Virus record (IMG/VR): IMGVR_UViG_2713896798_000016
Strand: one strand, 5' to 3'
DNA length: 28,031 nucleotides
Origin: a virus
Lineage: Duplodnaviria; Heunggongvirae; Uroviricota; Caudoviricetes
Positions 1 through 3,000 of this stretch are shown here, piece after piece (within the stretch, counting starts at the first letter, position 1; every line of letters begins with the position of its first letter). A program made the position numbers.

Positions 1-3000
1 CGTGCCGGTATTCGCGGTAATTGCTCCGCTGATATCCGCGTTCCTGGCTGTCAGCTTCCCTTCCGGCGTCAGGGAAAACGTCGGGGGGTTGCCGGATGAC
101 GTGATACTCACCGCAAACAGCCGCTTCAGGAACACGTCGTTCATGAACAGCTGATTCCCCTGCGCCACAAATAACGGCGTGCTGTTGCCGTTCTCCGGAT
201 TTATCATCGCGATACGGTCAGCCAGCAGCAGTATGTTGCTCAGTGGGCTGGCCATCAGTATCCTCAATCCCTGCACCAATCCCGGCCACATAGGGAATGC
301 CGTCTTTCGTTTTTTGAACCTTCAGCATGTACAGCGCAGCCAGGTCATCATTTGTGTCCTTCTGCACGCGCTGTATCTGCTGTATGGTGGCGCTCTGGTT
401 CTCCAGTGTTTTACTGACCGTCTGTGTGATTTCATTGCGGGTTTCCGTGATGCTGGTCTTCATCTCCGCCATCTCATCTGCAAGCTGGCTGTTATCTATC
501 AGTTCCCACAACCCCTGAGCCAGATGCAGTTTTCCTATTTTTTCCCGGAAAAATTCCAGATACCCTTCACCATCATTGCTGGGCTGCCCGCTGACTTCCA
601 CAAACGCAGATTTCCCCACCAGGTTGACGCTGCGCACGTAAAACCAGAAATCCTTCCCGGGCTTAATGTGCGGGCCGGATACACTCCACTGACTGCCGGT
701 CCCCAGATAACGGGCAGAGGTTTCCACCTGAGATGTGTCTGCGATTTTTGCCTCCGAAAACCAGAACTCAAACTGTACCGTCGGGTCATACACCGCAAGA
801 CGCGGGACCGCCGTTATCTGAAAATACCCCGGCGTCAGTTCAATGGTGGCGGGTTTTGCTGGCGCGTTAATCCGGAAGGTGGTGGTGGCCGGTTCGCCCT
901 GCTGGCCATAACTGTTAATTGCCCTGACTGTCAGGGTGTATTCCCCGGGCGGCAGACCACTGAAACGATGCTCTGTATCCGCAGTGATGGCGGTGGTCAC
1001 CAGACGGCTGTCTTCTCCGCTTCCGCTGGTCAGGCGCAGACTGAAGCGCACACCCTTCACCACCCGCGGCGTGTCCCATTTCGCCTGTGCCAGATACTGA
1101 CCGTCAGCCGCGCTCACCTCCACCGTCAGGTGCTGCACTGCCGGTGGAATAACGCTGTTCAGGGTGCCTGACTGCGGCTCAAAGCTGGCCCCGTTATCCA
1201 CGATGGCTTCTTTTTCCGGTACGTGCTGCACCGCCGTGATGGCAAAGGTGCCGTCCGTGTTTTCCCGGATGGAGACACAGCGGAACAGGCGACGACGCAG
1301 TGACGGCAGGGAGAGTCCCCATACACCGTATGTCTCCACGCCATCCGGCAGGGTGCTGACCTGTATCCGGTCCGGCGCGGGGTGTGCAGTGATGGCCACG
1401 CTCACCGGCTTACCGCTGCCGTTAATCAGGTTCACCGTGGCGGCACCTGTCTCCGGCAGGGTCACCTCACGGTCCAGTGTCAGGGTGCGGCTGGCGGCAT
1501 CGATGGACAGGATACGTCCGCCGGTCATGGTCCCGGCATAGTCGTTATCACAGATTTCAATAATGTCACCGGGTGTGTGACGCAGCCCCTGTGACCCGAG
1601 CGTGAAATCCACCGTCTGCGTTTCCAGCAGTCCGGTCTTTATCACCCACAGCCCGGCACGGTGGGCCTGACCGCGACTGGTGCAACCGAACGCATCCATC
1701 TTCAGCAGGTTGCGCCCGTAGCGCAGTATGGCTTCCGGGTCTTCCACCAGTTCCGTGGAGGTCTGCCAGCCGTTCTGCGGGTCGGTGTAATTCACCTCCA
1801 CCGCCGTGTGGCGGTCCTTCAGGGCGCTGAAGCTGTAGCGAAACCCCACGCCGTTATCATCCACCACCACATCGCAGTTGGTGTACGGCCACACCACATC
1901 CGACGGGCGGTCCTGAACGAACGTCAGCGTCTGGCCGTTCCATACCGGCATACAGCGCATCGCCGAGCAGAAATCACTGAGAACGTCCCACGCCTTACGC
2001 TGTTGTGACAGGTACGCATTAAAGGTCATCCGCGGCTCTGTGCCCCCGAAACCATCCGGGACCGTCTGGTCGCAGTACTGCGCAATGGCATACAGCGCCC
2101 ATTTGTCCACGTCTGCCGCCCCCAGACGTTTTCCCATGCCGTAGCGCGGGTGAGTCAGCATGTCCCACAGGCACCAGGCCGGGTTGTTGCTGTATGCCGG
2201 TTTCAGGCTGCCGTCCCAGATGCCGCTGTACGTGCGTTTTTCCGGGTCATAGTTTGACGGTACCTGGATGATGCGACCGCGGATATGGTAGTTCACCGTC
2301 ATCTGCTGACCGCCAAACTGCTCCGCATCCACCTGCAGCCCCACAATCGCCGTGTTCGGGTAGCACTGTTTCACATCGATGATTTCGGTGTATGACGACC
2401 AGAGCGTTCTGTTCTGCAGCTGGTCCGTGGTGCTGTCCGCCGTCTCCCGGACCATCCGGATGTTAAAGGGACGGGGAGGCAGATTCTCCAGAATCACCGA
2501 CGCCAGGTACTGTGAGGTGGTCTTGCCGTTAATGGTGACATCCTTTTCCGTCACCCAGTTACCGTTACGCTGCAACTGAATCAGCAGTCGGACAGAAGAG
2601 GGATTACGGTCGCCCTTTGAGGTGGTCTCCAACAGTGACTGCACCCCGAAGGTGACCCGCAGGCGGTCAATGTTCGCGGACGTAATGGTGCGCGTCACCG
2701 GCTTTGCTTTCGTCACTTCCACGCCCAGTGCGGTTTCCGCCCCGGAGGACTCAAAGCCTTCAGGTGGTGTCTGCTCCTGCTCCCCGGCGCGCCAGACCGC
2801 TGTCACACCATGTATCACAGGATTACCGTCCGTGTCCGGTCAGCGGGGTTTTTGTTCACCAGAATACTCTGCAGCCCCTTCACCGGACCTTCAATCGGCC
2901 CTTCACCAATGGCATCAATCACGCTCATCATCTGCGTGGACTTAAGATTGTCCTTGCCTCAACCGGCGTGTGTGCCCTGCCGCCACCTTTACCCATAATG

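Follow-up and report, generated by a model that had tools for sequence, protein, structure and literature searches.

The five one-base insertions and deletions (indels) that break the tail gene J and the adjoining sodC gene in the prophage sequence analyzed here (four in J and one in sodC) are, judging from sequence comparison and from the history of the record, very probably consensus errors of the deposited assembly and not mutations of the bacterium. The sequence, a stretch of 28,031 nucleotides from IMG/VR record IMGVR_UViG_2713896798_000016, is referred to below as the window. The chromosome of the strain most likely carries J as one unbroken reading frame of 1158 codons and sodC as an intact gene of 175 codons, like that of a sister strain. 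The prophage itself is genuinely defective, through ISEc23 in its tape-measure gene and an apparent loss of the early region bounded by ISCro1.

A first-pass annotation of the window had explained the frameshifts in J either by pseudogene decay or by homopolymer sequencing error, and had leaned toward decay localized to the J-sodC end. This localization coincides with the end of a PacBio-only and apparently unpolished contig, the indels are private to one assembly, and repair of the two genes is perfect; the lean toward decay is accordingly not supported. We favor the other alternative, for which the contig-end position, the private nature of the indels, and the presence of only one synonymous substitution in 3.2 kb against a sister with intact genes all speak.

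Source of the window and assembly method

The tape-measure product truncated to 565 aa by an insertion sequence (IS) was found on one record only, GCA_001264175.1, on contig LFZH01000010.1 (1.26 Mb), whose sequence matches that of the window at 100% identity over 21.7 kb. The first 7,660 nt of this contig are 'AG' followed by the window sequence, which places position 1 of the window at contig position 3, so that the end of the contig truncates J. The window accordingly covers the initial 28 kb of LFZH01000010.1. The genome LFZH00000000 is that of Escherichia coli IH53473, a STEC/ETEC hybrid (O101:H33, ST330) isolated from a child with HUS (PMC4551483).

According to the same paper, sequencing was done on PacBio RS only, with P4/C2 chemistry, and the assembly was made by HGAP pre-assembly, PacBioToCA correction, and Celera Assembler 7.0, giving 10 contigs; pre-assembled reads of <3,500 bp were pruned (PMC4551483). 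The PacBio reads are deposited under PRJNA269579. The words Quiver, Illumina, polish, and coverage are absent from that paper, which reports 16 prophage regions in the strain. Its authors checked suspected sequencing errors by Sanger sequencing and confirmed as real a single-base frameshift in estIa (PMC4551483). The ends of long-read contigs have been described as low quality in the Circlator paper, in which small insertions and deletions are said to persist in unpolished PacBio assemblies, Quiver being meant to remove them (PMC4699355). The window has thus come from an indel-prone platform (PacBio RS P4/C2) with a consensus made by Celera Assembler 7.0, and neither orthogonal nor consensus polishing is reported.

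Gene J and its surroundings

Region 1-2996 encodes the lambda-type tail tip attachment / host-specificity protein J (gpJ), and the coordinates of this and other features are listed in Table 1. As deposited, J is composed of five frame segments broken by four one-base indels. The central ORF of 866 aa (218-2818) carries the Pfam domains FNIII-A_GpJ, Phage-tail_3, Ig_J, Ig_J_second, and Phage_Tail_Tip, all five above the Pfam cut-offs and in canonical order, and gpJ is annotated in the relatives; the earlier recognition of a lambda-type J adjoining sodC was therefore right. A match covering at least 80% of the stretch 1-3200 is present in 3,661 of 5,426 complete E. coli genomes, and among the records listed and inspected, the homologous region is annotated as gpJ followed by a divergently oriented sodC. 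In three relatives, gpJ is a single intact ORF of 3,477-3,480 nt (1158-1159 aa). The length of about 1130 codons that the first-pass annotation expected for a continuous J is correct for lambda but not for the present allele, which has 1158 aa in intact relatives and 998 codons within the window.

The upstream neighbors of J in the window are the tail genes M, L, K, and I, with sodC between I and J, and in the relatives lom and a tail-fibre gene come after J. The best match of J in the phage collection is about 97% identical. An exact match to the 866-aa frameshifted ORF, searched for as the translated ORF and with six alternative starts, was absent from a collection of 15 billion proteins, and J evidently has no protein call in the source record. 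Within the gpJ family, the gene is unremarkable, and nothing here is new biology.

The sodC gene sits in opposite orientation to the tail operon, and a sodC moron between I and J is a common arrangement in E. coli lambdoid prophages. A 149-aa product of sodC is also called in records with wild-type DNA and is not diagnostic of the frameshift. Between tail genes K and L, window positions 5219-6814 hold an antirepressor gene and two Arc-family repressor genes, a moron cluster that is also carried by the sister prophage.

Table 1. Coordinates of genes, one-base indels and IS elements in the window
Feature	Position	Strand	Description
J, N-terminal 998 codons	1..2996	-	start ATG at 2996-2994; cut at window position 1 by contig end
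One-base insertion, J codon ~918	245..245	-	GG->GGG on + strand, CC->CCC in J sense
One-base insertion, J codon ~53	2838..2838	-	CCG->CCGG (G->GG) on + strand
One-base insertion, J codon ~50	2849..2849	-	T4->T5 on + strand
One-base deletion, J codon ~15	2953..2954	-	TTT->TT on + strand, AAA->AA in J sense
sodC, prophage-borne periplasmic Cu,Zn superoxide dismutase	3130..3658	+	annotated in relatives, WP_000649829.1
One-base insertion, sodC codon 11 (signal peptide)	3161	+	CATG->CATTG (T->TT)
ISEc23 (IS66 family), 2,532 bp, in tape-measure gene	9460..11991	+	8-bp target duplication CTTTTTCC at 9452-9459 and 11992-11999
ISCro1 (IS66 family)	23778..26500 (about)	-	bounds prophage just past small terminase gene
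P4-type tyrosine integrase	26766-28031		follows ISCro1

Position and nature of the one-base indels

The indels were placed by base-by-base alignment of the window to NZ_CP144926.1 (strain SCPM-O-B-7615, 99.8% identical over positions 1-3200) and to two further relatives. Against NZ_CP144926.1, positions 1-3200 contain exactly six differences, i.e., one substitution at position 121 and the five one-base indels. On the minus strand, the A-run at 2953 is one base short (GCAAGGAC versus GCAAAGGAC), and the extra C at 245 (CAGCCCACT versus CAGCCACT) ends the 866-aa ORF. All five events, comprising four insertions and one deletion, are length changes of a run of 1-4 nt, which agrees with the earlier remark that the frameshifts lie at or next to short homopolymers. 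The three frame hops noticed at first in J are real in the deposited sequence and were correctly placed, but the indels in J number four; since the insertions at 2838 and 2849 are only 11 nt apart, this pair had been read as one hop. The sodC insertion lies outside the interval considered at that time.

When the five indels are removed, the 998 codons of J contain no stop codon and no amino-acid difference from the gpJ of NZ_CP144926.1, and the synonymous substitution at 121 is the sole nucleotide difference left in the gene. Likewise, removal of the T at 3161 makes SodC identical to WP_000649829.1. The comparison with J of close prophages, recommended by the first-pass annotation as a check, has given a single continuous ORF, the outcome that this annotation had set as its refuting condition for re-sequencing, in the closest independent genome, which is that of a sister strain and not of IH53473 re-sequenced.

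Search for the indels in complete E. coli genomes

Queries of 45-47 nt centered on each indel site were run against the 5,426 complete E. coli genomes, in which 716 to 6,049 homologous places were found per site. The deletion at 2953 was absent at all 3,606 places (best identity 97.9%), the insertion at 245 at 3,003 places (97.9%), and the sodC insertion at 3161 at 716 places (97.9%), while neither of the insertions at 2849 and 2838 occurred at any of 6,049 places (best identity 95.6%, 43/45). At each site, the best identity is that of the query less its own indel or indels, and among all loci fetched, the mutant strings were present in the source record only. All five indels are private to one assembly. 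The sister and every other genome searched are free of these disabling lesions of J and sodC, so the lesions are not reproducible in the way expected of a genuine pseudogene. An exact-pattern search for the double-insertion allele in GTDB species-representative genomes gave 0 matches, which is uninformative because one genome represents each species.

The opposite assignment, that the errors belong to the reference genomes and not to the window, was considered and rejected: three independent genomes agree at the five sites where they are comparable (relative L003 has no match at 2838/2849, and the agreement of three excludes that comparison), their genes are intact, and thousands of copies concur.

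The same search bears on the idea that the short runs are sites of programmed slippage or contingency sites, through which expression of J and sodC would be switched by functional frameshifting or phase variation. Apart from the fact that the indels lie in mononucleotide runs, nothing points in this direction; the runs are only 1-5 nt long, none of the five positions varies in length among thousands of homologous sites in the 5,426 genomes, and four shifts in one gene are beyond read-through by any known mechanism. This explanation is effectively refuted, and we give it practically no credence.

Comparison with the sister prophage

The genome NZ_CP144926.1 carries the same prophage with an identity of 99.9-100%, and its gpJ (1158 aa) and sodC are intact. 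The window is collinear with it from position 1 to 23777 except for the 2,532-bp ISEc23, and the two differ by four substitutions over about 21 kb and by six one-base gaps. Five of these gaps are the indels described above. The sixth, at window position 16360 (15542 in L004), is a C4 in NZ_CP144926.1 versus a C5 in both the window and O103:H2 12009; the head-tail connector gene of NZ_CP144926.1 is annotated as 'frameshifted', while the ORF of the window is intact with 327 nt as in O103:H2 12009. This gap is a private one-base indel of the sister genome itself.

The RefSeq annotation of the region corresponding to window positions 16624-19208 (minus strand, 2,585 nt) is 'phage portal protein, frameshifted' in NZ_CP144926.1 and likewise in the complete genome of O103:H2 12009. 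The window itself contains a full Phage_portal ORF of 454 aa that overlaps at its end, at 17844-17847, with the beginning of a 407-aa ORF. Three independent genomes share this layout, which is therefore probably natural and no sign of decay. A tandem repeat with a unit of 162 bp (54 codons) and 3.6 copies of 95% identity extends over 17093-17682, within the 407-aa ORF that lies downstream of the portal gene.

All five indels private to the window are located in positions 1-3161 and none in the other 20.6 kb or so, which served as the indel-free baseline within the window; under uniform placement, the probability of this is about 4e-5. The private indels are thus concentrated where support for an assembly is weakest, namely at a contig end in a repeat, with all five within 3,161 nt of the end.

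Genuine pseudogene decay would mean that five one-base indels arose by replication slippage in IH53473 after inactivation of the prophage. We consider this unlikely, although it has a reasonable basis: ISEc23 and the apparent early-region loss bounded by ISCro1 leave J unselected, the estIa frameshift of the same strain was confirmed by Sanger sequencing (PMC4551483), and each of the five events alters the length of a run, as slippage does. The sister prophage speaks against it, since only four substitutions in about 21 kb separate the two prophages and the sister lacks all five indels. In E. coli, spontaneous base substitutions are more frequent than small indels by 10:1 in the wild type and by 5:1 in mismatch-repair mutants, as quoted in bioRxiv 10.1101/346874 from Lee 2012, and at a ratio of 10:1, the probability of at least five neutral indels given four substitutions is about 6e-5. 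Natural indel rates climb exponentially with run length (bioRxiv 10.1101/346874), whereas the runs hit here have 1-4 nt, where natural slippage is rarest. Nor does the region look like the product of neutral mutation in a pseudogene: positions 1-3200 contain five indels and one synonymous substitution, without nonsense or missense change in 998 codons. Moreover, real decay gives no reason for indels to gather in J and sodC: with an IS in the tape-measure gene, selection is lifted from all late genes alike, and yet the others are without a private indel. The clustering of all five within 3.2 kb of the contig end likewise disagrees with decay.

If the indels were real after all, they would have to reflect an unusually indel-biased and local mutational process, acting where J and sodC meet in the dead prophage of a HUS-associated STEC/ETEC hybrid since its very recent divergence from the sister, which we regard as improbable.

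Probable origin of the indels in the assembly

For contigs built from long reads only, clusters of one-base run-length indels at the end are a well-known assembly artefact, and the following course of events may account for them. Many lambdoid prophages with near-identical J genes in the strain would have caused the contig to break inside J, and only a handful of corrected reads would then underlie its last 3 kb or so. As the zone with the indels is smaller than the read minimum of 3.5 kb, a single corrected read could span all of it, and homopolymer-length miscalls typical of PacBio chemistry could have survived into the consensus. The sequence comparison itself shows the source of the window, its place at the contig end, the private nature and clustering of the indels, and the perfect repair; low read depth at the end and a break caused by the repeat are inferred.

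Several observations should be weighed against the error reading. The prophage is dead and J is unselected, so real decay is biologically plausible; the Sanger-confirmed estIa frameshift (PMC4551483) means that not every frameshift in the assembly is an error; and the indel positions show no simple gradient of becoming worse toward the tip, four of the five lying 2.8-3.2 kb from the contig end and only one in positions 1-2,837. In addition, about 20 kb of interior sequence contain no private indel at all, and a consensus as clean as this indicates that the pipeline was able to give an accurate sequence where depth was adequate.

An artefact could also have come about through mixing of paralogues rather than low depth, if reads from several near-identical J copies were piled up at the contig end and gave a mixed consensus. 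An E. coli genome has a median of 3 and a maximum of 14 places with J-like sequence, IH53473 is reported to have 16 prophage regions (PMC4551483), and the contig breaks inside J, all of which would fit. However, J alleles of other genomes differ from that of the window by about 2-3% in substitutions, so mixing should have added substitutions, and there is only one in 3.2 kb, a C at 121 that none of the three aligned relatives has. A mixed consensus is accordingly very improbable in our judgement, and consensus error at a presumably thinly covered contig end is the reading we retain for the five indels.

Genuine lesions of the prophage

The statement of the first-pass annotation that the rest of the late operon reads cleanly does not hold, since the tape-measure gene is split by ISEc23 and the operon is truncated by ISCro1. 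The ISEc23 insertion is absent from the sister prophage, and the copy in the window, whose IS66 genes are called in the source record, is 100% identical to a copy annotated elsewhere in NZ_CP144926.1; in the tape-measure gene, it is a genuine inactivating lesion. Collinearity with the sister prophage ends at ISCro1 (23778), and the prophage appears to have lost or rearranged its lysis and early half. The P4-type integrase beyond ISCro1 is found in other E. coli beside lptFG and idn-type chromosomal genes, and the protein is ubiquitous.

Implications for annotation

Frameshifted genes at the ends of contigs in long-read-only draft assemblies should not be scored as pseudogenes or as prophage decay. 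For IH53473 in particular, the breaks in J and sodC are no argument for an inactive superoxide dismutase or tail tip, and the real defects of its prophage are the IS insertions. Should the indels prove true, the outcome would be no more than an ordinary prophage in decay whose mutation spectrum is odd.

Comparison with known systems

The window shares with unpolished or low-depth PacBio CLR assemblies that retain residual indels (PMC4699355) the PacBio-only data, the lack of reported polishing, and one-base run-length indels confined to the terminal 3.2 kb. For the window, this likeness to PacBio CLR contig-end errors is one of pattern and provenance, not of read evidence.

Compared with WP_052933987.1, the gpJ of NZ_CP144926.1, the J of the window shares the domain order, and L, K (C40 peptidase), and I are upstream in both. 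With the four indels taken out, all 998 codons present in the window match WP_052933987.1. The differences are that J of the window is split into five frame segments and that its last 160 codons or so are missing at the contig end, beyond which lom and the tail-fibre gene known from the relatives would lie.

In two draft E. coli assemblies, GCA_000249395.2 and GCA_000249335.2, J is called as two or three ORFs beside the same sodC. None of the five indel alleles of the window is found there where the sequences are comparable (the 245 site has no match), and the breaks lie elsewhere than in the window. Both are presumably draft assemblies of the 454 era, made on an indel-prone platform, and their split J may belong to the same class of platform-induced frameshift.

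The sodC moron of E. coli lambdoid prophages (WP_000649829.1) and the sodC of the window have position, orientation, and sequence in common, and the window copy is distinguished by the extra T at 3161, which disrupts the reading frame of the signal peptide and is private to the record of the window.
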